DNA of 24,302 bases from a virus (lineage: Duplodnaviria; Caudoviricetes). The notes beneath the pieces are model-generated. The model made no database searches and was not told where the DNA came from. It saw only the letters and a list, made by a program, of their open reading frames with translations. The DNA is taken from positions 1 to 24,302 of IMG/VR virus record IMGVR_UViG_3300038313_000129. One strand, 5' to 3'. This document shows, one piece after another, positions 4,771-24,302 of this stretch. Position 1 is the stretch's first letter. Each line of letters begins with the position of its first letter. A program made the position numbers and the translations under genes.

Positions 4771-5018
4771 AATATCACCTCATAATTTTCCATCACATCT
4801 TCTCTTGTTAATGGTTGCACTTTCATAACCTCGGTGGTTATCGCATCTGTGTCGGGATTACAATATTTATTAAATATCATATCACTAATATCATTTGATA
4901 TTTCCGCACTTCTATCATTACATCGTTTATATGCCTCAACCATTGTATCTTCATCTTTGATTTCTTTAGGCGACATATTCAAAATCCTTATCTGTAATAC
5001 CGTTTCTACTGCTACCAT
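4767..5018 (-). CDS. hypothetical protein
   Basis: 83 aa ORF coupled by TAATG and ATGA overlaps. Confidence 0.75.
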   Translation of the reverse strand: MVAVETVLQIRILNMSPKEIKDEDTMVEAYKRCNDRSAEISNDISDMIFNKYCNPDTDAITTEVMKVQPLTREDVMENYEVIL

Positions 5019-6421
5019 TAAATATTCACCTTCGTTTCATAATTAGTTGCTATAACTTTACTTGTTTTATTTGCCTTAGACAATCTCTTTTTTAGTTCCT
5101 TTGAAAATCCTATCTTGTCGTCTTGATTACCGTGAACAAGGCAAATCTTGTTATATGATAGTTTAGTATAGTAATCAAGCAATTGCTTTTTATCCATATG
5201 GCTTGAAAAACTATTAAGTATCAATACCTTACATTTATTCTTTACGACCTTTTTATCTATCTTTATTTCCTTTAGTTCGCCACTTTTCATTTTACCAGCG
5301 TTGGATTCTGGTGTTGCATACCCACAAAATACCATATATGATTTGGGGTCGGGCATTATATATTTAAGCCACGCCATAGCACCGCCAGATTTAAGGAATC
5401 CTCCACTCGATAGTATAAGTAGCGGATAATCACTTGAATTTCCAAAATATTCTATGTCTTTAAAGTCGTGAATGAATAATTTCTTATCCCATTTCTTTAT
5501 ATCATACCATAGTTCCTTATTTTTGTCAATAACATTTTCCCATTCGTGTGATATAGATTCACCCAATGGTGTGTATATTAGCACCCTTATAGGCGGATTC
5601 TCGCTATACATATCATATATAGTGGTTAACATTTCTTGCAATCTGCTATTGGCGAATGTCGGTATTAGTATTTTAGATTTATGTTCTATCGCAAAATCAA
5701 TAGCCATTTTTAGTTTGTCAATATCCTTACTGCGGTCTTTAATTTTATTCATCCTTTTACCACCACCATAAGTACATTCGCCCACCAATACATCTAAGTG
5801 TTCATTTATAGGCTCAAATTCACTGATATAATACTGTTGTGGTTTATGGCTTATATCACCAGTAAACCCCACCCTTTTAATATTGACACCATCAAATAGT
5901 TCAACTACAACCTGTCTTGCCTTTGGTATATGCTCAGCGTTGTAATAAGTAAACGATATGTTATTATCTATCTTAGTTTTATCGTGTACTTCACATTCAA
6001 TAATATGATTTAACATATTATCCACATCATCTTGTGTGTATATTGGTTGTCTATTATTCTTAATACTATCTTGACCGAATATCTTAACACAATCCTGTAA
6101 CATTAAACTATATATTCCTTTAATACCCTTTGGTATATATACTGGGCAATTTGCCCCGTCTTTGAATAACGCTGGAACTAAGCCACCGTGGTCTATGTGA
6201 CTTGGATGTGTGATGATAATTGCATCTATTTGTTTTGGCTTTATGTCCTTGTGTCTTGTACTGTTTATTTTATAGTCAAGGTCGTCATCATTGTTCTGAA
6301 AAAGACCATAATCTATAAGGATGGTCTTATCAAAGAATCTTAGTAAGATACAAGACCCAGTAACATCATTAGAATTATGACCTATAAATTTTAGGTAAGG
6401 GGTTTTAATTGCTTTTGCCAT
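5018..6421 (-). CDS. metallo-beta-lactamase/beta-CASP nuclease (Ysh1/CPSF73-like)
   Basis: VTGSC, IDYG, THPSHIDH, FTGD, ECTYG, GY, FSSH and LVHG motifs. Confidence 0.88.
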   Translation of the reverse strand: MAKAIKTPYLKFIGHNSNDVTGSCILLRFFDKTILIDYGLFQNNDDDLDYKINSTRHKDIKPKQIDAIIITHPSHIDHGGLVPALFKDGANCPVYIPKGIKGIYSLMLQDCVKIFGQDSIKNNRQPIYTQDDVDNMLNHIIECEVHDKTKIDNNISFTYYNAEHIPKARQVVVELFDGVNIKRVGFTGDISHKPQQYYISEFEPINEHLDVLVGECTYGGGKRMNKIKDRSKDIDKLKMAIDFAIEHKSKILIPTFANSRLQEMLTTIYDMYSENPPIRVLIYTPLGESISHEWENVIDKNKELWYDIKKWDKKLFIHDFKDIEYFGNSSDYPLLILSSGGFLKSGGAMAWLKYIMPDPKSYMVFCGYATPESNAGKMKSGELKEIKIDKKVVKNKCKVLILNSFSSHMDKKQLLDYYTKLSYNKICLVHGNQDDKIGFSKELKKRLSKANKTSKVIATNYETKVNI

Positions 6422-13447: not shown

Positions 13448-14122
13448 TTACAAGAAAAATTCTTTAAAATATGGTAGTGTTTCGCACCAATCACAAAATT
13501 GATGCCATTCGGTCAGTTTGTGATTTTGTCGCTGGCTGTAGATATGATATACATTCTCATAACTCATAGTAATAGTTCTTGTTTGTAGCCAAGATTCTGG
13601 TAACCATCTTATTAGTTCTTTCCAATATCTTTTGTCTTGTGTTTCAAGATATGTTTTACGTATTAGTTCTAAATAACAAATATTATCCTTTGCTAACATA
13701 CCTATATCTGTAAGGTCTATGCCTATAGGTAAATCACCTTCAAAATCGTCTGTTTCAAAGCAATCTAATGTGATAGGTGTAGTCGATAGTTTGTGCATCG
13801 TGCTTGTACTATTAGCCGTTGTTCCCACTTTGTAAGTATCAAATTCTTTCCAATAATATAACGGGGCGGTAATATCTACGCTCACCATAATCTGCCTTAG
13901 AAACTTTCTGTGTTCTGAACCAGCATTGATTAATTTCTTAGCAAGCGTCATATCATTATCGCCAATAATAACACCATTATAACATTTATTACATTGGTCG
14001 TTATCACATTGTTCACAATCTCCATTGAACTCGCTATCACTTTTATCCCAACTATTCATAGGATTACGCATACCACGCAATGCTCCCTCGAAATTAAATA
14101 TTCGCGTATTCTCAAACTTCAT
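13448..14122 (-). CDS. ThyX/Thy1-like (FAD-dependent thymidylate synthase-related) protein
   Basis: H-x-KFLRQI, APLYYWKEFDTY, STMH, LP, R-x-N-H-KL-x-EW follow the Thy1 layout; the canonical RHR motif is absent. Confidence 0.55.
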   Translation of the reverse strand: MKFENTRIFNFEGALRGMRNPMNSWDKSDSEFNGDCEQCDNDQCNKCYNGVIIGDNDMTLAKKLINAGSEHRKFLRQIMVSVDITAPLYYWKEFDTYKVGTTANSTSTMHKLSTTPITLDCFETDDFEGDLPIGIDLTDIGMLAKDNICYLELIRKTYLETQDKRYWKELIRWLPESWLQTRTITMSYENVYHIYSQRQNHKLTEWHQFCDWCETLPYFKEFFL

Positions 14123-15190: not shown

Positions 15191-16024
15191 TTAATATAAA
15201 TCTATATTCATAGCATTAACTACCTGTGTATTATTAGTTTTTATATATCTCATAGTTGTTTCAATCCTGCTATGTCCTAATATCTTTTGAACCGTTGGAA
15301 TTGGTACGTTATTTTCTGCTAATAATGAAGCATAGGTACATCTGAATAAATGGGGCGAAACCGCTTTCCAATCTTCTATTCCAGCCCTTTTAGCCAGTGC
15401 TTTCAATGTCTTGTTGATAGTTTTCTCCTTCATTTCTGTACCATTGTTTGATACGAAAATGTTATCAATATCACAATTTTTTCTACTTTTGAGATACTCT
15501 TTTATAAAGCCTCTCGTTTTATTCGATACAGATATAACTCTATCCTTGTCGCCCTTCCCGTGTATGACAACAGTTTCGCTGTCAAGGTCGGATAATTTCA
15601 TATCTATCAATTCGCTAACACGAATACCCGTACTCGCTAAAGTCTGAACAATTGCCTTATCCCTTGAATTTTTCCCCTGTCTAATTATAGCGTTTACTTC
15701 ATCTACAGTTAGTGGGACTTTTTCTTTAGATTTCGGTGTAAATGTCTGAAAGTTCTCTATGGGATTTTCGCTTATATATCCAATAGCTGTCAACCATTTA
15801 AAATATGACTTCAATGCCATTATTTTTCTTGACATAGTTGCGGTTGAATACTGTTCACGATAATGTCCGAACCATTCACTTATATCATTATATGTGATTT
15901 CAGATTCGTTCTTGCCAACATATTCCATAAACTGTCCTATATCAAATCTGTAAGCCACTTTTGTATCTTCATCTAACCTATTGCCGTGTCTATTAATTTT
16001 TTCATTCAAGAATCTTTCTAACAT
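15191..16024 (-). CDS. XerC/D-like tyrosine recombinase
   Basis: TGIRVSE, GKGDKDR, PHLFR, LGHS, TTMRY (R-K-H-R-H-Y) plus a core-binding N-terminal domain. Confidence 0.95.
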   Translation of the reverse strand: MLERFLNEKINRHGNRLDEDTKVAYRFDIGQFMEYVGKNESEITYNDISEWFGHYREQYSTATMSRKIMALKSYFKWLTAIGYISENPIENFQTFTPKSKEKVPLTVDEVNAIIRQGKNSRDKAIVQTLASTGIRVSELIDMKLSDLDSETVVIHGKGDKDRVISVSNKTRGFIKEYLKSRKNCDIDNIFVSNNGTEMKEKTINKTLKALAKRAGIEDWKAVSPHLFRCTYASLLAENNVPIPTVQKILGHSRIETTMRYIKTNNTQVVNAMNIDLY

Positions 16025-16054
16025 TTTATTGTCCTCCTTTGTTTTGATATATAT

Positions 16055-16083
16055 ATCTTAACATATAATATGATATTTGTCAA
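16055..16083 (-). promoter_or_regulatory. sigma-A promoter of the recombinase operon
   Basis: TTGACA-17-TAAGAT with extended TG; AAGGAGG RBS downstream. Confidence 0.85.
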
Positions 16084-16155
16084 CAAGAAAATGCAAATAT
16101 GCTACAAATAATTCCTGTTATAAGTAGAAAATATATTAACATAACCTAAACCATC

Positions 16156-16626
16156 CTAACACGTACACATTTCTGTATTCGCATATTTTTTAATTCCCGC
16201 TTTATCTATAAGATATACTCCATAACCGTCTGTGCTTTCAATAGCATAAATAGTTTTATCGTATCTTCTATGTTGCGCAATTTTTATAACTTTATATTCG
16301 CTACCCATTCCTGGTTTATGACCATATGCGTACATAACCGCCTTATCAGGTATATTATGTAATACCCAATCAGTATATCTAGAATATATCATAGCTGGAT
16401 TAATTACCTCCACATAATCACCTTCTGAAATATCTTCATACTTGGCAATCGCCCTATTTTTTGACAATTCCGCACCTTTGTTAAAATCGAACACATCACT
16501 CTTACAACAAGTTGCCCGTCCAGTTGCTAATTTTACACTTTTCTTATTTTTTGTACCATATAGTGTAGTGATTACACTTCTTGTACCGTTTCTTTTGGTT
16601 ATTATTTTTCTGATTTCCTTATCCAT
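16156..16626 (-). CDS. two-domain hypothetical protein (GxAxC..D.F...G...RA domain + SH3-like domain)
   Basis: GRATCCKSDVFDFNKGAELSKNRA followed by ISEGDYVEVI. Confidence 0.7.
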   Translation of the reverse strand: MDKEIRKIITKRNGTRSVITTLYGTKNKKSVKLATGRATCCKSDVFDFNKGAELSKNRAIAKYEDISEGDYVEVINPAMIYSRYTDWVLHNIPDKAVMYAYGHKPGMGSEYKVIKIAQHRRYDKTIYAIESTDGYGVYLIDKAGIKKYANTEMCTC

Positions 16627-16644
16627 TTTCGTTTTCCTTTCTTA

Positions 16645-16766
16645 TTTTTGGTTTTCATTTTCAAAAACGATTTTCAATTTTGATTTTTAAATTTCGTTTT
16701 CATTTTTTATTTTTAGATTTCATTTTTTTTTAATTTTAAATGTAAAATTAAAGTTCAAAATTAAAA
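16645..16766. repeat. degenerate hexamer / T-tract low-complexity repeat
   Basis: Runs of ATTTTC, GATTTT, TTTTCA and TTTTTA units in an intergenic gap. Confidence 0.6.
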
Positions 16767-17018
16767 TCAAAGTTTACTAGGCAAACTGCCGTGATTCAAG
16801 TTCCACCTTAAGCACCATGCCTTATACTCTTCTTCTGTAATCCTGTCACCAACATAATCAATTTTGACCTGCCGTGCATCATTAGTGTCTGGCGACAATG
16901 AATATGGTTTTATCTTTTTGTTCTTTTTAAGACCATTTGCGCCAACAGGATTTGACCTTAAATAGTCTTGCATCGCCAATTCGGAAATTATCTTATCAAT
17001 TGCTTTCGTGTTCTTCAT
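16767..17018 (-). CDS. hypothetical protein
   Basis: 83 aa, AAGGAGGT RBS, own promoter. Confidence 0.8.
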   Translation of the reverse strand: MKNTKAIDKIISELAMQDYLRSNPVGANGLKKNKKIKPYSLSPDTNDARQVKIDYVGDRITEEEYKAWCLRWNLNHGSLPSKL

Positions 17019-17042
17019 TTCTATACCTCCTTGATACCATAT

Positions 17043-17071
17043 ACCTTAACATATAATATAATATTTGTCAA
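17043..17071 (-). promoter_or_regulatory. sigma-A promoter, near copy of the recombinase promoter
   Basis: TTGACA-17-TAAGGT; 17039-17072 matches 16051-16084 at 32/34 positions. Confidence 0.8.
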
Positions 17072-17270
17072 CTATTTTTTGTGGTTTAGGCTGAATTTTC
17101 TTCAGTTAGTCGCCAGTTGCCATATTCATACCATTCTATAGGTAGGATTTAAGGGCGAAATTTGGATTCAGGCATAAGTTTTTCGACTTTCCTACCATTA
17201 TTGAGTAGTTATTCATTAAAGGAATTAAATCGTTTAAAACATATCTTTTCTTCGATTTGGTTTAAGAATC

Positions 17271-17404
17271 GTTTTCTTTAATTTAATTTAATTTTATAAA
17301 AAAATAATTTAATTAAAATCTTTTTAAATTTATTTTTTTTATTTTTAATCAAATTGTTTTTTTTAAAACATTTTTTTAATTTTATTTTTTTCAAAATCTT
17401 TTTA
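17271..17404. other. extremely AT-rich tract with repeated T-runs
   Basis: 8 G/C in 134 bp; ends abruptly at the G-rich box CCTCGTGGGGGTATTTTGGGCGCACG. Confidence 0.85.
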
Positions 17405-17457
17405 CCTCGTGGGGGTATTTTGGGCGCACGATTACCTCAGAAAAAATTTGGGGGTTG

Positions 17458-17553
17458 AATTATCAGAATATTTAGAAATGTATATATATTCATTTTCAGA
17501 TAATTCGTACTATTCTGACAATTTCCAATTATTCCCAAAAATGTCAGAATTTT
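17458..17553. promoter_or_regulatory. cluster of CodY-box-like sites
   Basis: Against AATTTTCWGAAAATT: 17458 AATTATCAGAATATT 13/15, 17467 11/15, 17491 CATTTTCAGATAATT 13/15, 17509 ACTATTCTGACAATT 12/15, 17539 11/15. Confidence 0.6.
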
Positions 17554-17716
17554 CCAGCCTACAAAAAAATGGGAATTTTTACCAAAACTTCCAGTTACTT
17601 ACAATTTATTTTTTTGCAACTTGGATGTTTGCGGCTTTAAACTCCCATTGTTTGTCATTCCATACAACACGATTTTTCGATTAAACCGTGAGGCTTTTTA
17701 TTTAATTTATACCTAT

Positions 17717-17744
17717 ATTATATCACAGTTCCAGCCATTGTCAA
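17717..17744 (-). promoter_or_regulatory. sigma-A promoter with no substantial downstream ORF
   Basis: TTGACA-16-TATAAT with extended TG. Confidence 0.75.
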
Positions 17745-17748
17745 TAGA

Positions 17749-17767
17749 AATAATGAAAATAATTATG
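17749..17767. promoter_or_regulatory. Fur-box-like site
   Basis: AATAATGAAAATAATTATG, 15/19 to GATAATGATAATCATTATC, 4 bp from a -35 hexamer. Confidence 0.45.
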
Positions 17768-17783
17768 TTTTTATTTTGATACA
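17765..17783. repeat. 19-bp TGT-N12-ACA operator-like motif, copy 1 of 4
   Basis: ATGTTTTTATTTTGATACA; other copies at 20323, 22745 and 23263. Confidence 0.65.
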
Positions 17784-17860
17784 ATTATTGTAAGAATATG
17801 GTACATTTTGTATACATAATTGATACCCTCGTTATACTTTAACACTTTATCAGACTAAAG

Positions 17861-17960
17861 CGGCTGATTGCCGTTCTAAACGACTTTAGTTATACGCATT
17901 GATATTTATATCATTGCGCCATTAAAACCTGTCACGCCTTAATTTTGGGCTTTACAAGGG
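17861..17960. repeat. ~100-bp periodic element (strong-gyrase-site-like)
   Basis: Core GATATTTATATC, 8 nt, then arm 17921-17956, 27/36 identical to arm 18535-18570. Confidence 0.6.
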
Positions 17961-17970
17961 TATATGCGAT

Positions 17971-17991
17971 ATTGTTGGATATACCAACAAT
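17971..17991. promoter_or_regulatory. perfect operator-like palindrome
   Basis: ATTGTTGG-ATATA-CCAACAAT. Confidence 0.6.
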
Positions 17992-18046
17992 AAAACTAAT
18001 AAATGTATAATATTTATTTTTGTGTATATTATGCAAAATCAAAAAG

Positions 18047-18063
18047 TTGGCATGATTCTTGCA
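18047..18063 (+). promoter_or_regulatory. sigma-54 (-24/-12) promoter motif
   Basis: TTGGCATGATTCTTGCA = TGGCAY-N5-TTGCW with exact GG-N10-GC spacing. Confidence 0.65.
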
Positions 18064-18080
18064 AAATGTAGGAAAAATTC

Positions 18081-18190
18081 AAGCCGTATAAGGCTGTTTT
18101 TAAAGCCATATAAGGATTAAATGGCTTATATGATAAACTATACCTTGAATCAAATAAAACCCGTTAGAAACGAAAATAAAGCCCTGTAGA
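18081..18190. repeat. ~100-bp periodic element (strong-gyrase-site-like)
   Basis: Core GATAAACTATACC, 8 nt, then AATAAAACCCGTTAGAAACGAAAATAAAGCCC. Confidence 0.6.
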
Positions 18191-18392
18191 ACCATATGAT
18201 GTTTTGGCATGATTAAGCATTATTCAGAAAATATACACTCCCAGCGATACATACGCTTTAATCCTTTATTACTTTAGCGTGTGAAAGTACGATTTGCAAC
18301 CTCGGTGGACAAAATCTCCGCATCTTCCTTCTGTAGCTTATAGGATTGCCTCCATTCAAAGCGATCTCGATTTCCTTTGTTTTATTATCTAT

Positions 18393-18421
18393 AGTATACA
18401 CCAGAAAAAGCAATTTGTCAA
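18393..18421 (-). promoter_or_regulatory. sigma-A promoter with no substantial downstream ORF
   Basis: TTGACA-17-TATACT. Confidence 0.8.
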
Positions 18422-18470
18422 CACATTTCTTAAAAGTTTTTCAGGTTTTTTTGTTGGATAATGTGAAATA

Positions 18471-18570
18471 TAAAGCCCAGAATTGACTTGTAATGGATTT
18501 TATTTGACTTATTGAATACTTATATCTAAATGGAATTAAAGCCCGTTAAACCTTAATTTCAAGCCTTACA
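18471..18570. repeat. ~100-bp periodic element (strong-gyrase-site-like)
   Basis: Core GAATACTTATATC, 8 nt, then ATTAAAGCCCGTTAAACCTTAATTTCAAGCC. Confidence 0.6.
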
Positions 18571-18593
18571 ACACTAATACATGATTTTCACAT

Positions 18594-18620
18594 AAAAAAT
18601 AAGGGCTATTAACCCTTATT
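18594..18620 (-). terminator. intrinsic terminator ending the early gene block
   Basis: AATAAGGG-7-CCCTTATT running into a T tract on the minus strand; overlaps the stop of the ArdC-like gene. Confidence 0.7.
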
Positions 18621-18870
18621 TAATTTTTTCGCATTGTTCCTTTGTAAAGAATCCAGCATTTACAAGGTAAAGTTTTTTTTCATCTTTCCCAGTTTCCTTG
18701 TTTTTCCTTTTACAAGGTTTCCATATTTTGGTAATAAATCTTGCTTTTTCTCCATGTTTTACCATATACCCAGCTCGTTTCCAAGCTGGATAAGTATTAA
18801 CTATTGTATCAAAATCAATACCATTTTCCAATTTTGCTTCTAATATTAATATTTTGTTTGTAGTTGCCAT
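18616..18870 (-). CDS. ArdC N-terminal (ssDNA-binding)-like protein
   Basis: TYxxWKxxGYxVKxGEKA...IW...FF..EQ pattern; ATG 18870 follows AGGAGGT. Confidence 0.7.
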   Translation of the reverse strand: MATTNKILILEAKLENGIDFDTIVNTYPAWKRAGYMVKHGEKARFITKIWKPCKRKNKETGKDEKKLYLVNAGFFTKEQCEKIK

Positions 18871-18883
18871 TTTTTTGTACCTC

Positions 18884-19075
18884 CTATCTAATTTTAATTG
18901 CGTTAATTTTGTTGGCATAATATCTTATTTTTGCGCCTCCATTAAATGGATTATTAGTATTTTCCAAATTTAATATTATTTTTGCTATTGTTCCTACAGC
19001 CTCATCTTTTGTGATGAGTCCCATTTTGCAAGCCTCGTAATATTTTTCACATTCTACATTTTTTCTTTTAATCAT
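18884..19075 (-). CDS. early hypothetical protein
   Basis: 63 aa, AGGAGGT RBS. Confidence 0.8.
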   Translation of the reverse strand: MIKRKNVECEKYYEACKMGLITKDEAVGTIAKIILNLENTNNPFNGGAKIRYYANKINAIKIR

Positions 19076-19451
19076 TTTGTAACCTCCTATTAATTACATT
19101 TGTTTTCTTTTGATACTATTATAATATACCACTACATTCAAGTTACTTACTTAATGTTGTGTTCATCCATAAACCTTGTGACTTCCTCTATTTGTTTCAT
19201 TATTTTTTTAACATCTTCTTCGTCTTGCGCAATCCACGCTTTACTATCTTCATCTCCGTATAGCTCATAGCACTTTTTGCTATCAGCAAGTTTCTTTTCA
19301 GCTTTTTTAAGAACCTCGTTCCACTCCATCATCGTATTTTCTCTTTTGGTTCCTCTTAATATTTGCATTTTCTTGCCTCCTGAACACTCATCATATTTTT
19401 TTTGTAACCTCCTATTAATTACATTTGTTTTCTTTTGATACTATTATAATA
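19075..19451. repeat. 52-bp perfect direct repeat (19075-19126 and 19400-19451)
   Basis: TTTTGTAACCTCCTATTAATTACATTTGTTTTCTTTTGATACTATTATAATA twice, followed by CACTACATTxAAGTT in both (after a 3-nt insertion in the left copy); covers the -10, leader and RBS. Confidence 0.95.
19147..19368 (-). CDS. early hypothetical helical protein
   Basis: 73 aa, AGGAGG RBS. Confidence 0.8.
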   Translation of the reverse strand: MQILRGTKRENTMMEWNEVLKKAEKKLADSKKCYELYGDEDSKAWIAQDEEDVKKIMKQIEEVTRFMDEHNIK

Positions 19452-19474
19452 CACTACATTAAAGTTTTTGTCAA
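19446..19474 (-). promoter_or_regulatory. sigma-A promoter
   Basis: TTGACA-17-TATTAT. Confidence 0.7.
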
Positions 19475-19511
19475 CACTTTTTTAGAAAATAAATAAAGTT
19501 CTACTATTTTG

Positions 19512-19548
19512 AATATTCTGACAATTTAACCTGTTAAAAATTTATCAA
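19512..19548. promoter_or_regulatory. CodY-like box followed by a Rex-like box
   Basis: AATATTCTGACAATT (13/15); CTGTTAA-AAAT-TTATCAA (12/14 to clostridial Rex TTGTTAA-N4-TTAACAA). Confidence 0.45.
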
Positions 19549-19568
19549 TTTATTTTAGCGTTCACTTC

Positions 19569-19597
19569 ATTATAACACAAAAAATTCGTTTTGTCAA
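19569..19597 (-). promoter_or_regulatory. consensus sigma-A promoter
   Basis: TTGACA-17-TATAAT with extended TG. Confidence 0.88.
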
Positions 19598-19611
19598 GTG
19601 TTTTATCATAA

Positions 19612-19643
19612 AAAAAATTGTACTTTTTCAAGTACAATTTTTT
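19612..19643. terminator. bidirectional intrinsic terminator
   Basis: AAAAAATTGTACTT-TTTC-AAGTACAATTTTTT. Confidence 0.75.
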
Positions 19644-19663
19644 CCTGTTGATAAATTAATCCA

Positions 19664-19704
19664 TAACTTGTTTATATCTTATCATATAAACAAGTTAAAG
19701 TCAA
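19664..19704 (-). promoter_or_regulatory. sigma-A promoter embedded in a 14-bp perfect inverted repeat
   Basis: TTGACT-17-TAAGAT with extended TG; arms TAACTTGTTTATAT (19664-19677) and ATATAAACAAGTTA (19684-19697). Confidence 0.65.
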
Positions 19705-19712
19705 GTGTTTTT

Positions 19713-20228
19713 TTAATAAATTCTGTTAAAATTTCCGCCACAAATACCACATCTATAATTTTTATAATTATTAACAAATTTGCTTTGTCTCTTCCTCCTG
19801 ATTATTTGCCCGCAACCCTGACACTTAAATTCATATTGATAACTTTCTCTTTCTCTATCGCTCGTTGGTCTTTTAATCCCAAAAGATTCATAACTGGAAC
19901 ATCTAGAAATGTGATAGCCTAATTCACGATTTACCTTGTTTGCCAGTTTTTCCCAATTACCTTTATGACCATTTCCGCCTTTAGTACAATGTAGAATCTC
20001 GTGTACTATGGTATTTTTTACCTCGTTCGTGTTTGCCTCATCTCTTAGTATTTCGCTGGAGATATTAATCGTATGAACTCTTACGCCGTTTTGGTAAAAA
20101 CCCTTTGCTTCTCCAAATCTTCTTTTTGCCCTGTAATTGACCGACACATCTATTATAGGTTCTACATCGATTCCAATCGAACCGACCTCATTCATACATT
20201 CTACAAATAGTTTGTTTAGATTTTTCAT
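19713..20228 (-). CDS. SprT-like zinc metalloprotease
   Basis: RRFG, TIVHEILH, GHKGNW, C-terminal CxxC...CxxC zinc ribbon. Confidence 0.9.
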   Translation of the reverse strand: MKNLNKLFVECMNEVGSIGIDVEPIIDVSVNYRAKRRFGEAKGFYQNGVRVHTINISSEILRDEANTNEVKNTIVHEILHCTKGGNGHKGNWEKLANKVNRELGYHISRCSSYESFGIKRPTSDRERESYQYEFKCQGCGQIIRRKRQSKFVNNYKNYRCGICGGNFNRIY

Positions 20229-20273
20229 TTTCTTATAACCTCCAATTAGTTATCATCTTTAACTGATATACTA

Positions 20274-20302
20274 AGTATAGCACACGATAACGCCGTTGTC
20301 AA
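20274..20302 (-). promoter_or_regulatory. sigma-A promoter of the SprT-like gene
   Basis: TTGACA-17-TATACT with extended TG. Confidence 0.85.
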
Positions 20303-20398
20303 CAAAAATCTAACAAGTTTTTATGTATTTTTTTTAGTACAATATCAAACCCCAAAACAGCCCAAAATACGCTAAAATCAAAAAAACTATACCCTTAT

Positions 20399-20497
20399 AA
20401 GCCACGAAACGGCGTTCTAACGGCTTTTATTTTCGTTTGATATAAGTGTTCACGCCCTTTAAAAAAGTCTGTTAAACCTTAAAATAAAGGCACGTTT
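20399..20497. repeat. ~100-bp periodic element (strong-gyrase-site-like), inverted core
   Basis: Core GATATAAGTGTTC is the reverse complement of the 18514 core with 1 mismatch; shares GTTAAACCTTAA with 18545-18556. Confidence 0.6.
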
Positions 20498-20512
20498 TTT
20501 TTGAAAAAAGTA

Positions 20513-20541
20513 TTGACAAATCACCTAAAAGGGTTTATAAT
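20513..20541 (+). promoter_or_regulatory. perfect consensus sigma-A promoter on the non-coding strand
   Basis: TTGACA-17-TATAAT. Confidence 0.85.
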
Positions 20542-20548
20542 AAAAAAA

Positions 20549-20590
20549 GTACATATGTTCTTTTTATTAATAAATTAGAACATATGTTCT
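20549..20590. promoter_or_regulatory. two LexA/DinR (Cheo) boxes
   Basis: AGAACATATGTTCT (20577-20590, perfect GAAC-N4-GTTC) and GTACATATGTTC (20549-20560, 1 mismatch). Confidence 0.7.
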
Positions 20591-20599
20591 TCACAGCAT

Positions 20600-20645
20600 A
20601 TAAATAATAGTGTTACCAGTTTTTACCAATAACACTATTATTTAT
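20600..20645 (-). terminator. long stem-loop at the end of an early operon
   Basis: 16-bp perfect arms ATAAATAATAGTGTTA / TAACACTATTATTTAT; the stem extends by G-U pairs only on the minus-strand RNA. Confidence 0.75.
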
Positions 20646-20672
20646 TTATGTAACTTGGAGGATTAACTTATC

Positions 20673-20858
20673 TTAATATTCTGTATACTCCCATTCCTTG
20701 CACATCCTATGCAATGTGTCATAGTCTCTTTTTGTTACTACAATACCATCATAATGTATTGTGTCTTGCTCCCTTGTAAAGCATTTGCCTTCAAAATTTA
20801 TTCTTAAAAAATAATGGTTTCCGTTCATGTTTACTTTTGTCCTAAAATCTACTACCAT
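20673..20858 (-). CDS. early hypothetical protein
   Basis: 61 aa, GGAGGTG RBS. Confidence 0.8.
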   Translation of the reverse strand: MVVDFRTKVNMNGNHYFLRINFEGKCFTREQDTIHYDGIVVTKRDYDTLHRMCKEWEYTEY

Positions 20859-20862
20859 TTTT

Positions 20863-21255
20863 TTACACCTCCACTCTTATATCTGTTAGTACATCACTCC
20901 AATTAGTTCCAAAATGTGTAACGCCCCAAACGTACATATCTAATGGCTCAATGTAATATACGATTTCATCTGTAAACTCTTTTAAAATGTTTACTCCATT
21001 ACTATCAATAATAAAATACTGAAAAATATCATAATATTCATTTGATTCGTCGTCACAATCCAAACCGTTAACAAGTTCAACCTCCGAATACTCACCACTT
21101 ATTTCACAATAAAACAATTTTGTAATATTATTGCATAATACGGCATCAAAACTTTTTGCTAACGTGCCGTAATCCACAAAGTGATTCTCTAAGCCATAAT
21201 TACTTATCTTATTTCCGAAAAAATATTCACTCTTCCATACCTTTTTATTGTTCAT
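20863..21255 (-). CDS. early acidic hypothetical protein
   Basis: 130 aa from ATG 21255 (AGGAGGT); DIFQYFII...YVWGVTHFGTNW motif. Confidence 0.8.
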   Translation of the reverse strand: MNNKKVWKSEYFFGNKISNYGLENHFVDYGTLAKSFDAVLCNNITKLFYCEISGEYSEVELVNGLDCDDESNEYYDIFQYFIIDSNGVNILKEFTDEIVYYIEPLDMYVWGVTHFGTNWSDVLTDIRVEV

Positions 21256-21305
21256 TTTTTTACCTCCTATTAGTAAAACATATAATATAACTTTATATAT
21301 CAACT

Positions 21306-21461
21306 TTATTCTTTTGAATCATTATCAAATCTCTTCATTTTTGCCTCTAGAACCTTGATTTTATCGGTCTGAAAGTTATATTCTAACTGTAAAACTTTTC
21401 CAGCCCTCAAAGCCCTATTCATCATAGGCACAAGTTTTTCTATATTTACATTTTTTACCAT
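21306..21461 (-). CDS. hypothetical protein, 51 aa
   Basis: MVKNVNIEKLVPMMNRALRAGKVLQLEYNF...DSKE*; overlaps the upstream stop. Confidence 0.7.
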   Translation of the reverse strand: MVKNVNIEKLVPMMNRALRAGKVLQLEYNFQTDKIKVLEAKMKRFDNDSKE

Positions 21462-21874
21462 ATCTCCAACCCCTCCATTACACCACTAAATTCATTATCC
21501 ATTATTTCTAAAAAATCTTTGTCGCCGTCAGGTATTCCACGATAACAACAATTTATATAATTTTGCAACCACTCCTCATTAGTCAAATCATAGTCAAACT
21601 CACTATGGCACTCTTCTCGCACATCATCATCCATATAACTAGCTATTGTTGTCATCAACTTATCAGTTACTAACTGGTCAATAAATATATTTACAGTATC
21701 TCCCATAATGTGAAAATTCACAATGTCATAATTAAAGTAGTTGACCCCAATACTATTTTTACCGTCATAATTTGCCACAATATCATCATTATCCCAAGGC
21801 TCACCATTATGTATATTTATGATATTGATATTATTGTTATCTGATATTTTTTTTAATAATTCTTCTACTTTCAT
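21455..21874 (-). CDS. early acidic hypothetical protein
   Basis: 139 aa, D/E/N-rich, GGAGG RBS. Confidence 0.8.
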   Translation of the reverse strand: MKVEELLKKISDNNNINIINIHNGEPWDNDDIVANYDGKNSIGVNYFNYDIVNFHIMGDTVNIFIDQLVTDKLMTTIASYMDDDVREECHSEFDYDLTNEEWLQNYINCCYRGIPDGDKDFLEIMDNEFSGVMEGLEIW

Positions 21875-21878
21875 TCTT

Positions 21879-22151
21879 CTACGCCTCCATCATCATACAT
21901 AAAACTATAATTCCCTGTGTATAATAATCAGAGAATAACTCACTACTATTAGCACATATACTCTGATTATATTCATCTTCATCCATCACTTCAACAAAAC
22001 TAATTTCTGAATTGTCTGAATAATCGAATATTTCCGAACAATTATCAGTATGAAAATGATTAGGAAAATGTTCTCCCGTGTCGTTGGGCTTATAAACCTC
22101 AATAACATCATAGTCACCTTTGTATAGATTTTTGAAATCTTTAATTGTCAT
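21879..22151 (-). CDS. early, very acidic hypothetical protein
   Basis: 90 aa, about 19 D/E against 4 K and no R; AGGAGGT RBS. Confidence 0.8.
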   Translation of the reverse strand: MTIKDFKNLYKGDYDVIEVYKPNDTGEHFPNHFHTDNCSEIFDYSDNSEISFVEVMDEDEYNQSICANSSELFSDYYTQGIIVLCMMMEA

Positions 22152-22167
22152 TTGCTTATACCTCCTA

Positions 22168-22425
22168 TTAGTATCTTACAATCTTTACTATCTTATCTCT
22201 TTTATACACCGCTATATAATTAACAGATTCTTTATAGTGCTTTTTAGTTATCAATACAAGCCCCTTATCTTCGTTATACATATTAACCTCATATGTATAT
22301 ACGCCCTTTGTTTTGTCTACTTGTTCAATTTCTGCTATTCCAGCGTGATATCCACATATAATAGCTGTACCACCATTACTTGATATAACGGCTGTTATCA
22401 ATAGTGCGATAATTCTTTTTTTCAT
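22168..22425 (-). CDS. small exported or membrane-anchored protein
   Basis: MKKRIIALLITAVIS signal-peptide-like start. Confidence 0.75.
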   Translation of the reverse strand: MKKRIIALLITAVISSNGGTAIICGYHAGIAEIEQVDKTKGVYTYEVNMYNEDKGLVLITKKHYKESVNYIAVYKRDKIVKIVRY

Positions 22426-22427
22426 TT

Positions 22428-22646
22428 TTACTCACACCTCATTCCGTTTTTATAAGCCTGAATAGTCAGTTCTACCGTTGTACCATCATCAAGATAAAGT
22501 ATAACACCTTTATCTTTTGTTAAAATTCCAGCCTCTTCAAAACTTTCTATATCATTTATTTCAGTTCCAAAATTATCAATACCCTCCACCTCGTCAAGTT
22601 CTGAAAAAATATCCATTAGACAATTTTCAATTTTTTTCTCTTTCAT
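22428..22646 (-). CDS. early acidic hypothetical protein
   Basis: 72 aa, SFEEAGILTKDKGV..L.DG motif; AGGAGGT RBS. Confidence 0.8.
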   Translation of the reverse strand: MKEKKIENCLMDIFSELDEVEGIDNFGTEINDIESFEEAGILTKDKGVILYLDDGTTVELTIQAYKNGMRCE

Positions 22647-22692
22647 TATTAATACCTCCTATTGGTTCGTTTTATCTTTAACTTGTACCCTT

Positions 22693-22721
22693 ATATTACA
22701 CCTTTTTATTCCCAATGTCAA
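22693..22721 (-). promoter_or_regulatory. sigma-A promoter
   Basis: TTGACA-17-TAATAT. Confidence 0.75.
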
Positions 22722-22764
22722 CCCCTTTTGACAAAGTTTTTTTTATGTTTTTATTTCAGTACAA

Positions 22765-23187
22765 TCAAAATAATGTTGTATTAATTTTTTTTAAAAATTC
22801 ATCGATTTCATTGTCACATACTCTAACTTTTTGTGGTTGACAATCATTGATAGATTTTAGCATCTGGCTTAATGTATAACGGTCTTGTTCAACTCCGTTA
22901 AAGTATTCACGCCCCGTTATTTCCCATGTGCTTGTATTAATGATATACATTCCATTATCCCAGTTATCACAATCAAGATTCTCCAATAAATCAACTCCAC
23001 AAGATAGCCCGTCATCAAAATAGTTACAAATAGTTTGCGCCAGCCTTGCCATACCATAATCATCATTGCGATAACCTTTCATTTTACAATATTTCAAAAA
23101 ACCCTCAATACTGTCTCTCCCACCATTCCAATGTAAATAAATTCCTACCTTTTTTCTTTCATCTGTTATTACTGCTCTGTTGCCCAT
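22765..23187 (-). CDS. early phage protein (MGNRA...YLHWNGG type)
   Basis: 140 aa, AGGAGGT RBS, own promoter. Confidence 0.8.
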   Translation of the reverse strand: MGNRAVITDERKKVGIYLHWNGGRDSIEGFLKYCKMKGYRNDDYGMARLAQTICNYFDDGLSCGVDLLENLDCDNWDNGMYIINTSTWEITGREYFNGVEQDRYTLSQMLKSINDCQPQKVRVCDNEIDEFLKKINTTLF

Positions 23188-23234
23188 TTTTAAAAACCTC
23201 CTATTAGTTTTTCTTTTGTTTTAACTTTATTTAT

Positions 23235-23263
23235 AGTATACACTTAAAAATCCCATTTGTCAA
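23235..23263 (-). promoter_or_regulatory. sigma-A promoter
   Basis: TTGACA-17-TATACT. Confidence 0.85.
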
Positions 23264-23307
23264 TGTTTTTATTTTAATACACGATATAATATTTGTCGTA
23301 TGATAAT

Positions 23308-23730
23308 TTATCTACTGCAATACTTATTATATATCTTTAAATCATATTCGTTGTTGTTTAAGCCTATTCCAGCCCTTATTATTCGCATTATATCACAGAA
23401 TATACTAAGATATAATACATCTTGAATATACCCTTGTTCATCCTTTAAATATTCATTCCATTCATAATTTAATATTTCCTGCTTATCATTGATAATATTA
23501 CCATTTATACAGATTGAATTAGTCTGACCGTAAAACTCATTTAATAAATATATAGTACCATTTGCAAAATTAATATAACAATTATGTTTAGTATATCTTT
23601 CAAACAAGTTAGATATATCTTTTTTATTAATTTTATAAGTATAATAATCTTTATTAATAAAATCCATTGCATATTTAAGAAATGCTGTTTTATCAGATGA
23701 TGTTAGATATATTCGCCTTTTATTATCCAT
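23308..23730 (-). CDS. early hypothetical protein
   Basis: 140 aa from ATG 23730 (AGGAG RBS). Confidence 0.75.
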   Translation of the reverse strand: MDNKRRIYLTSSDKTAFLKYAMDFINKDYYTYKINKKDISNLFERYTKHNCYINFANGTIYLLNEFYGQTNSICINGNIINDKQEILNYEWNEYLKDEQGYIQDVLYLSIFCDIMRIIRAGIGLNNNEYDLKIYNKYCSR

Positions 23731-23747
23731 TTTTATATCTCCTATTC

Positions 23748-23915
23748 TTACCATTTTTCTATGGGTAATTTTTTTTCACGACAATAATCCATTCTATGTG
23801 AATGTAATCTTAGTAGTCCGCAAAGCTCTTGCTCTTTTTTACTGCATTTTGAGTCGCAACCATCTTTATCATTGCAATTATCAATTCTCTTTTGTATACT
23901 TTCTAACAATGTCAT
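23748..23915 (-). CDS. Cys-rich hypothetical protein, 55 aa
   Basis: MTLLESIQKRIDNCNDKDGCDSKCSKKEQELC...YCREKKLPIEKW*; AGGAGGT RBS. Confidence 0.75.
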   Translation of the reverse strand: MTLLESIQKRIDNCNDKDGCDSKCSKKEQELCGLLRLHSHRMDYCREKKLPIEKW

Positions 23916-23940
23916 TTTTTTGTACCTCCTATTAGTCTTT

Positions 23941-24042
23941 TAGCACCGTTATTTTGTGTTTTAACGGTCTTTTTGTTTTAATCAATAACTTATACCTTAA
24001 CGGCATTAAAGTCGATAAAAGCACTTATTAACGGCGTTAAAC
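23941..24042. repeat. ~100-bp periodic element (strong-gyrase-site-like)
   Basis: Core AATAACTTATACC, 8 nt, then ATTAAAGTCGATAAAAGC; fills the intergenic gap. Confidence 0.55.
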
Positions 24043-24045
24043 CTA

Positions 24046-24285
24046 TTAAATTACATCTACCAAATAACCCGCATCACTAAACAACCAGCCGTTTATTATC
24101 AACCCGTTAATTATTTCACAATTAGTTGGAATTTCACCTCCATAATCCCAAGGGTTCAGATTATCTTTAATCTCCTCAAGTGCTTTAATTTTGCTATTTT
24201 CAGATAATTCTGAAAATAAGTAAGTATTTTCTGAATTACCGATTAAAGGCAAATCTGTTAAATGTGTCATTTTTGATACATCCAT
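24046..24285 (-). CDS. early hypothetical protein
   Basis: 79 aa, AGGAGGT RBS. Confidence 0.8.
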   Translation of the reverse strand: MDVSKMTHLTDLPLIGNSENTYLFSELSENSKIKALEEIKDNLNPWDYGGEIPTNCEIINGLIINGWLFSDAGYLVDVI

Positions 24286-24302
24286 TTTTTTTAACCTCCT
24301 CT

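Follow-up and report, generated by a model that had tools for sequence, protein, structure and literature searches.

The gene-free gap at 17019-18615 of the virus contig analysed here, a single stretch of 24,302 bases (the window) from a Clostridia-type phage, with nearly every gene on the minus strand, probably comprises the margin and the inner (right) end of one long direct terminal repeat. Judging from the sequence, the finishing cut by the terminase would fall near 17412, at a place set by a conserved motif at 17417-17436. Two copies of this one motif, recognised in the same geometry, would serve the genome: the outer copy, which lies past this contig, would start packaging, and the inner copy would end it once a full genome and the early-gene block had been packaged. 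The repeat length would track the variable early block (3-14 kb in relatives), and the remaining gap would form a gene-free margin of the repeat. A terminal-repeat end is a known type of structure; the sequence signature described here is new and predictive at base level. To our knowledge, how terminases define both ends of terminal repeats of 3-14 kb is poorly understood.

The gap lies between an early block and a replication block, a position that had been proposed to matter and does so under the terminal-repeat reading. The replication block, which encodes RecJ, primase, helicase and a Sak4-like protein, is headed by a XerC/D-like tyrosine recombinase (15191-16024, minus strand). The early block (18616-24302, minus strand), the predicted content of the terminal repeat, combines small genes with many near-perfect promoters, includes an ArdC-N-like gene (18616-18918) and a SprT-like gene (19713-20228), varies among strains, and is closed by a bidirectional terminator at 18597-18621. 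As expected of a long repeat, this small-gene block with strong host-type promoters lies on the repeat side. The claim that the gap holds no credible gene was borne out: its open reading frames have zero PHROGs or Pfam matches, only micro-ORFs with weak SD sequences were detected, and the longest open reading frame carries a frameshifting insertion at 17562 in one strain. Rfam (E<=1) and ARAGORN gave no match in the window, which is also free of parS. Near-identical strains of the window phage are present in 8 studies, and two strain contigs cover the gap, L168 (98.7%) and L169 (96.3%). By helicase and recombinase, the closest cultured phages are six Enterocloster siphophages of ~100 kb (35-38% identity).

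Several features of the neighbouring genes were observed in passing. The first gene past the predicted genome end (16767-17018) encodes an 83-aa protein that belongs to no known family, has 23 homologues and ends in a conserved EEEYKAWCL, and a Beta-CASP metallo-beta-lactamase-fold nuclease (5018-6421) lies between helicase and primase. In the early block, a 58-nt direct repeat comprising a promoter and a ribosome site (19075-19132 and 19400-19457) flanks a 73-aa gene; the 325 nt between the repeats are deleted in run X2 and other strains swap the 73-aa gene, suggesting cassette exchange.

The most conserved element of the gap sits at its left edge (17403-17436), and the original prediction had omitted it from its list of features; it points to genome-end formation, which agrees with the same prediction's suggestion that the DNA itself is the functional unit. 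Homologous gaps in relatives were located by alignment of the recombinase (15191-16024) as anchor, and the motif was recognised by reading these gaps. In the window it takes the form GGTAATCGTG-N5-AAAAT (17417-17436, minus strand), predicted to be the inner copy of the terminase recognition site; group-wide it reads GGTAATnGyG-N5-AAAA, on the gene strand and at the replication-side edge of the gap. The window contains one exact match only (17436-17427), which is kept intact in strains L168 and L169. Of 22 clade loci, 15 have the motif upstream of the recombinase (15 of the 16 with at least 5 kb of upstream flank), as counted with a pattern that was tuned on these same loci and admits the GGTAAAG variant of G002. 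Six of the seven misses have a flank of 4.5 kb or less, and the seventh, L092, is genuine; in G003 the motif is absent from the 8.8 kb upstream. Across the 22 clade loci there are zero matches on the opposite strand and zero in the replication block, and the controls yielded 0 matches in 831 kb and 4 in 1,158 kb. Loci retrieved with the protein at 13448-14122 mostly had other layouts and were kept as controls only, and scans of genomes and viral contigs with the Sak4-like protein returned distant phages. Collection-wide scans with 14- and 15-base forms of the motif gave mostly unrelated short-pattern matches and were excluded from the counts; an observed count of 29 against 2.6 expected, biased by the choice of stretches, was likewise kept out of the evidence. 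The 18 relatives whose gaps were compared fall into about five lineages, as judged by their flanks, without a tree. One could still regard the gap as a lineage-specific mosaic of ordinary promoters, operators and terminators with no packaging role, since most of the motifs originally listed in it are at chance density or unconserved and the gap has no DNA-level likeness to cultured phages (short blastn patches only). Against such a mosaic, which we regard as very unlikely, stands the conservation of motif position and strand among phages with recombinases that share only 35-45% identity with that of the window.

A link to a physical genome end comes from the cultured Enterocloster phage PMBT24 (proposed Kielviridae). 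Its genes around the gap follow the order seen in the window, and it shares the motif, the RNA blocks, the periodic elements and the CodY-like boxes, although its proteins are only 29-38% identical. In the accessible part of its description, PMBT24 is a virulent phage with a single PhageTerm peak on the reverse strand, published as pac-type and circularly permuted, and position 1 of its record is the PhageTerm-mapped end; neither the motif nor its second copy is mentioned there (PMC11035940). The outer motif starts at base 25 of this record, on the minus strand and 25 nt from the mapped end, and a second, co-oriented copy is found at 87,135, within the gap homologous to that of the window. Co-oriented distant pairs recur in all five cultured Enterocloster phages examined (9.0, 12.7, 12.7, 12.85 and 13.7 kb apart), as well as in G004, G005, G006, G008, G010 and G001 (3-13 kb); a scan for such pairs gave no match on the opposite strand. 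In these 11 two-copy genomes the copies lie 3-14 kb apart and flank the early genes. How the motif is conserved, oriented, paired and placed with respect to the PMBT24 end can be seen directly in these genomes. The two copies also differ in what follows them: the outer one marks a sharp switch from G-rich to C-rich DNA, and the inner one is followed by A+T-rich DNA (0.69-0.92 in relatives); the copy in the window is of the inner type. The switch at the outer motif is also one from purine-rich to pyrimidine-rich DNA, abrupt, with skew passing from ~+0.65 to -0.9; such sites are seen in L201 (330-560), in L200 (39660-39963), and in G001, G004-G006 and G008. Palindromes of parS-like sequence lie within ~400 nt inside the outer motif at ~39600 of L200 (PMBT24) and ~57900 of G001.

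The published assignment of PMBT24 suggests another reading, in which these are headful (pac) phages, the motif is the terminase site, and the window's copy is a lone pac site or a secondary, occasionally cut one. The single PhageTerm peak, so far as the available description goes, agrees with it (PMC11035940), as does the lineage G011-G016, where the motif is confined to a single locus, mostly as a tandem pair 37-41 nt apart; even the complete G012 lacks a distant partner. On the other hand, the inner copy keeps to one landmark as its distance from the outer copy varies from 3 to 14 kb, and unit length plus spacing spans 105.6-120.8 kb among the five cultured phages, so that the inner copy does not track one headful. 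Typical pac sites start within or adjoining the terminase genes. The PMBT24 end is ~15 kb from terL, and no terminase lies near the gap. A terminase family search found a match in one of five genomes. Furthermore, according to the parts of these sources at hand, PhageTerm labels any one-strand peak as pac (PMC5557969), and in Twort-like phages with 8-kb repeats the left end is unique whereas the right ends are scattered (PMC3896407). The pac call for PMBT24 would therefore be compatible with a long repeat whose right end is imprecise, and we consider the headful reading quite unlikely. Asymmetric termini of the N4 or Twort type, with a fixed start and several or scattered right ends, fit both the single PhageTerm peak and the tandem inner motifs; N4 itself differs from the window's group in its repeats of ~400 bp, and no comparable motif is described for it in the accessible portion of that source (PMC3896407).

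A replication origin is a further alternative. Here the motif would bind a phage initiator and, with the A+T tract, form an origin upstream of the helicase-primase block. Tandem motif copies ~40 nt apart, followed by DNA of 80-92% A+T, occur in several lineages, the site is gene-free and heads the replication block, and the complete G012 has a single motif locus. Yet in PMBT24 the motif lies 25 nt from a mapped virion end and the DNA downstream is C-rich, the window has one copy only, and nucleotide skew does not switch across the gap. An origin appears unlikely on this balance, while in G011-G016, with their single locus, an origin or a pac site would fit equally well.

When the 25-nt offset of PMBT24 is applied to the window's motif, the cut is predicted at 17412, between 17412 and 17411, within an inverted repeat TACC..GGTA (17403-17417) that has perfect 6-bp arms in L168 and L169. 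The window holds eight repeats of this type, so the chance that a given base falls inside one is ~0.5%. In all 18 relatives a C/G run covers the +25 position. Directly past the predicted genome end comes an A+T-rich tract (17270-17402), and A+T reaches 0.91 across the 150 nt downstream of the motif. Similar anatomy was found when the right ends of seven long-repeat phages were compared (K, P59, Spock, AvesoBmore, A511, SPO1 and CampHawk). In K (whose repeat boundary is annotated as inferred by similarity), P59 and Spock, TACC stands before the cut and GTA or GGTA just past it, followed by A/T tracts; ~60 nt upstream, P59 shares with the window a C run and a CodY-like box. A511 and AvesoBmore display half of this anatomy, and it is absent from the ends of SPO1, taken at the position where we presume its end to lie, and CampHawk. 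SPO1, T5 and the Herelleviridae (K, A511, Spock, P59) share with the window a small-gene takeover block bounded by gene-free DNA, and repeats of the Herelleviridae type further share C/G runs, TACC..GGTA and an A+T tract at the right end, with CodY-like boxes inside. The window, in contrast, belongs to an unrelated siphophage group, its end is a predicted one, and GGTAATnGyG stands before both predicted ends, a motif not found at the ends of Spock or P59. The records of 6ec, nattely, Satyr and MMB025 have starts that carry no long-repeat annotation. The end motif was not found described in the literature on phage termini searched, which took in few subscription papers.

The runs compared (X2, X6, X17 and X19, as contigs) showed neither an end nor a twofold depth step, features that contigs would not display, and the RNA run X19 leaves the gap uncovered. 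Contig X17 extends 32 nt past 17412, and L168 and L169 cross it too, as repeat-ended assemblies do likewise. Given the single-locus lineage G011-G016, and an outer copy and a terminase that lie past the contig, we hold a terminal-repeat end to be probable, with an origin unlikely and a pac or secondary site quite unlikely. Cutting at the inner copy, and every assignment of a protein to a site in this locus, are what we infer.

The original prediction had taken 17405-18600 for a crowded array of sites for host DNA-binding proteins, with far more regulatory input than nearby genes need. Enrichment was judged against 300 dinucleotide shuffles of this stretch, with 14 motif types scanned. CodY-like boxes did stand up to this comparison. 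A predicted cluster of CodY-consensus boxes occupies 17458-17553 and includes a 24-nt overlapping pair (17458-17481); boxes lie at 17458 and 17491 (two mismatches), 17509 and 18219 (three), and 17467 and 17539 (four). Those with at most three mismatches number four, against a shuffle mean of 0.43, a count reached in 0 of 300 shuffles. The 24-nt pair consists of the boxes at 17458 and 17467, which have 6 nt in common; 4 of 300 shuffles contain such a pair. In the part of the CodY literature at hand, a 6-nt overlap is the arrangement of genuine CodY sites, and operators such as hutP resemble the window in having the 15-nt consensus and a 24-nt overlapping pair with two and four mismatches (PMC10415144). 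A 15-nt consensus above chance together with a 6-nt-overlapping pair would mark the stretch as a putative CodY operator, and unlike known operators it adjoins a predicted genome end, with a gene-less promoter upstream. CodY-like boxes recur in 17 of 18 homologous 1.2-kb gaps, and 14 of the 18 relatives have at least one no more than ~325 nt upstream of the predicted cut. A second overlapping CodY-like pair (19503-19526), an inverted near-copy of 17453-17482, was noticed in the window downstream of a perfect promoter (19597-19569).

The array had been proposed to act as a decoy or landing pad, either titrating host regulators (CodY and Fur among them) or controlling the entry of DNA. The enrichment of CodY-like boxes and their recurrence in 17 of 18 gaps speak for it, as do the CodY-like arrays inside the terminal repeats of the Bacillus phages P59 (31 sites) and Spock (9 sites), which were picked for matching the window's box cluster. 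Against it, the window has only about five CodY-like sites, the PMBT24 boxes (14 in the 12.9 kb between motifs vs 29 in 57 kb) are enriched only about twofold, and none of the 18 relatives has a Fur-like or a sigma-54 site. CodY has more than 100 chromosomal targets according to the accessible part of its source (PMC10415144), so a handful of sites would make titration implausible, and the decoy reading is highly improbable. P59 (L462, 9792-12435) has two long CodY-box arrays inside its terminal repeat, with ~40-48 nt spacing and many boxes in 9-nt-offset pairs; judged by sequence, these would be far better candidates for a CodY sink than the gap of the window.

The other sites in the supposed array fared less well. 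The Fur-like box at 17749 has 4 of 19 positions mismatched, a score that 2% of shuffles reach before correction, and it is present in none of the 18 homologous gaps; it is neither clearly above chance nor conserved. TGT-N12-ACA at 17766 is also near chance: 11 further copies lie elsewhere in the window, and 16 such sites are spread over 11 of 18 relatives' gaps. Scans of the gap for DnaA, Rex, cre, LexA and Spo0A, with consensus strings that we assume to be the right ones, stayed at chance level. The sigma-54 -24/-12 consensus at 18048-18063 (plus strand), which points into the early block, has a perfect core with exact spacing that 0 of 300 shuffles matched (as one of 14 motif types scanned) and is identical in L168 and L169. 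It has no downstream gene and no counterpart in any of the 18 relatives, and would be lineage-specific or a chance occurrence. The palindrome with 9-bp arms at 17970-17992, listed as a perfect palindrome at 17971, is present in the window and disrupted by substitutions in runs X6 and X17, so that it is not strictly conserved among strains. TTGTATACA (17808-17816) is there too, but altered at both ends in L169. CTTTA-N6-TAAAG (17845) and ACTTT-N8-AAAGT (18271) are patterns defined post hoc, and inverted repeats with arms of at least 5 are at chance in the gap (30 vs 30.8 in shuffles); those with arms of at least 7 number 7 vs 2.5, reached in 1 of 100 shuffles.

These two spaced inverted repeats, with the tyrosine recombinase 1.4 kb off, could suggest an attP or resolution site for that recombinase. 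Such repeats are nevertheless at chance density, the scan of GTDB genomes with the Sak4-like protein revealed no integrated relatives, and PMBT24 is described as virulent in the part of its report available (PMC11035940); this reading is scarcely credible. As a whole, then, the multi-regulator array is not supported by the sequence as a conserved unit. What survives of the claimed excess of regulatory input is the CodY-like sites, the other motifs being at or near chance or unconserved. CodY-like boxes and the periodic elements described below exceed shuffled density and are kept in relatives (17 and 12 of 18, respectively), and Fur-like boxes and short palindromes stay at or near shuffle level; Fur-like and sigma-54 sites (0 of 18) fail the comparison with relatives.

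Both sigma-A promoters said to have no gene were confirmed, one with an extended -10 at 17717-17744 (minus strand, 12/12) and the other at 18393-18421 (minus strand, 11/12). The first would drive a predicted small hairpin RNA at 17562-17710 (minus strand), a long hairpin ending in a U run. The 149-nt stretch past this promoter has a folding z of -4.7, as against only -1.7 for a 17760-18388 transcript. The predicted RNA has no Rfam match, and one of its hairpin pairs is broken in strain L169. Its blocks TRTGGAATG and GCAAACA are common to the PMBT24 group and L090 and occur in 8 of 18 gaps, while a structure common across lineages was not found (2 pairs). A different, highly conserved non-coding block of ~110 nt past a gene-less promoter was seen in L104 (5530-5650) and also in L105, L107 and L108, and is a candidate small RNA of that lineage. 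The only perfect plus-strand sigma-A promoter in 16000-24302 lies at 20513-20541 with no evident downstream gene; past it, at 20578, stands a perfect GAAC-N4-GTTC palindrome, which we take to be LexA-type.

The three periodic elements of the original prediction are real. Gyrase-site-like elements were placed at 17835-17965 (score 28.6, centre 17895), 18073-18203 (36.1 under the four-base model, and the window's top site under the A+T-phase model) and 18445-18575 (31.0, centre 18509). Periodic elements centred near 17900, 18138 and 18515 were matched in 0 of 300 shuffles even with free phase allowed; the mean for the gap's top three sites is 33.5, whereas shuffles reach 25.9 at most and 14 coding pieces score 19.1-24.1. 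A putative fourth near 17212 (score 18.7) did not reach this level. Periodic elements exceed shuffles in 12 of 18 relatives' gaps, and in PMBT24 the strongest ones lie between the two motifs. Further elements of this kind were observed in the window at 20370-20500 (~20435) and 23925-24055 (23989), the latter being the strongest of the window. With ~130 bp, two arms and a 10-11-bp period, the elements would have the shape of strong gyrase sites. They resemble the Mu SGS and the 130-bp gyrase motif in length, two arms, ~10.5-bp phasing and, apparently, T-A-G-C order (Table DS10), and differ from the Mu SGS, as far as the accessible part of that source goes, in that several copies lie in the early block of a non-transposable phage and are displaced in phase by 1-2 nt relative to the E. 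coli matrix (PMC6379681). The model used is parametric, with phases taken by eye from Table DS10 (PMC6379681, available in part), and the -1 phase shift in scoring the gap and relatives was chosen post hoc, after an earlier phase result. With a best fit shifted by 1-2 nt in phase, and a swapped-order control that at 27.4 is lower but still exceeds the null, gyrase is a lead and no assignment. On the terminal-repeat reading, the elements would likely wrap on gyrase and relieve supercoils from the strong early promoters.

Host CodY would likely be bound beside the genome end. It is conceivable, though quite doubtful, that the motif stands at both ends of a variable repeat with a fixed-offset cut and that CodY beside each copy acts as a cofactor of packaging or DNA entry; IHF at lambda cos is a packaging cofactor and offers a parallel. 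If this were true, genome-end formation would be tied to the amino-acid and GTP status of the host. With a motif 25 nt before a mapped end and again beyond the early block, the prediction of the cut can be checked at base level in the reads of cultured phages. If the terminal-repeat reading is true, PMBT24 and its relatives would move from the pac to the long-repeat phages, the sequence by itself would suffice to call the genome ends of uncultured members, and CodY sites near the ends of phages would offer a testable link between host nutrition and packaging.
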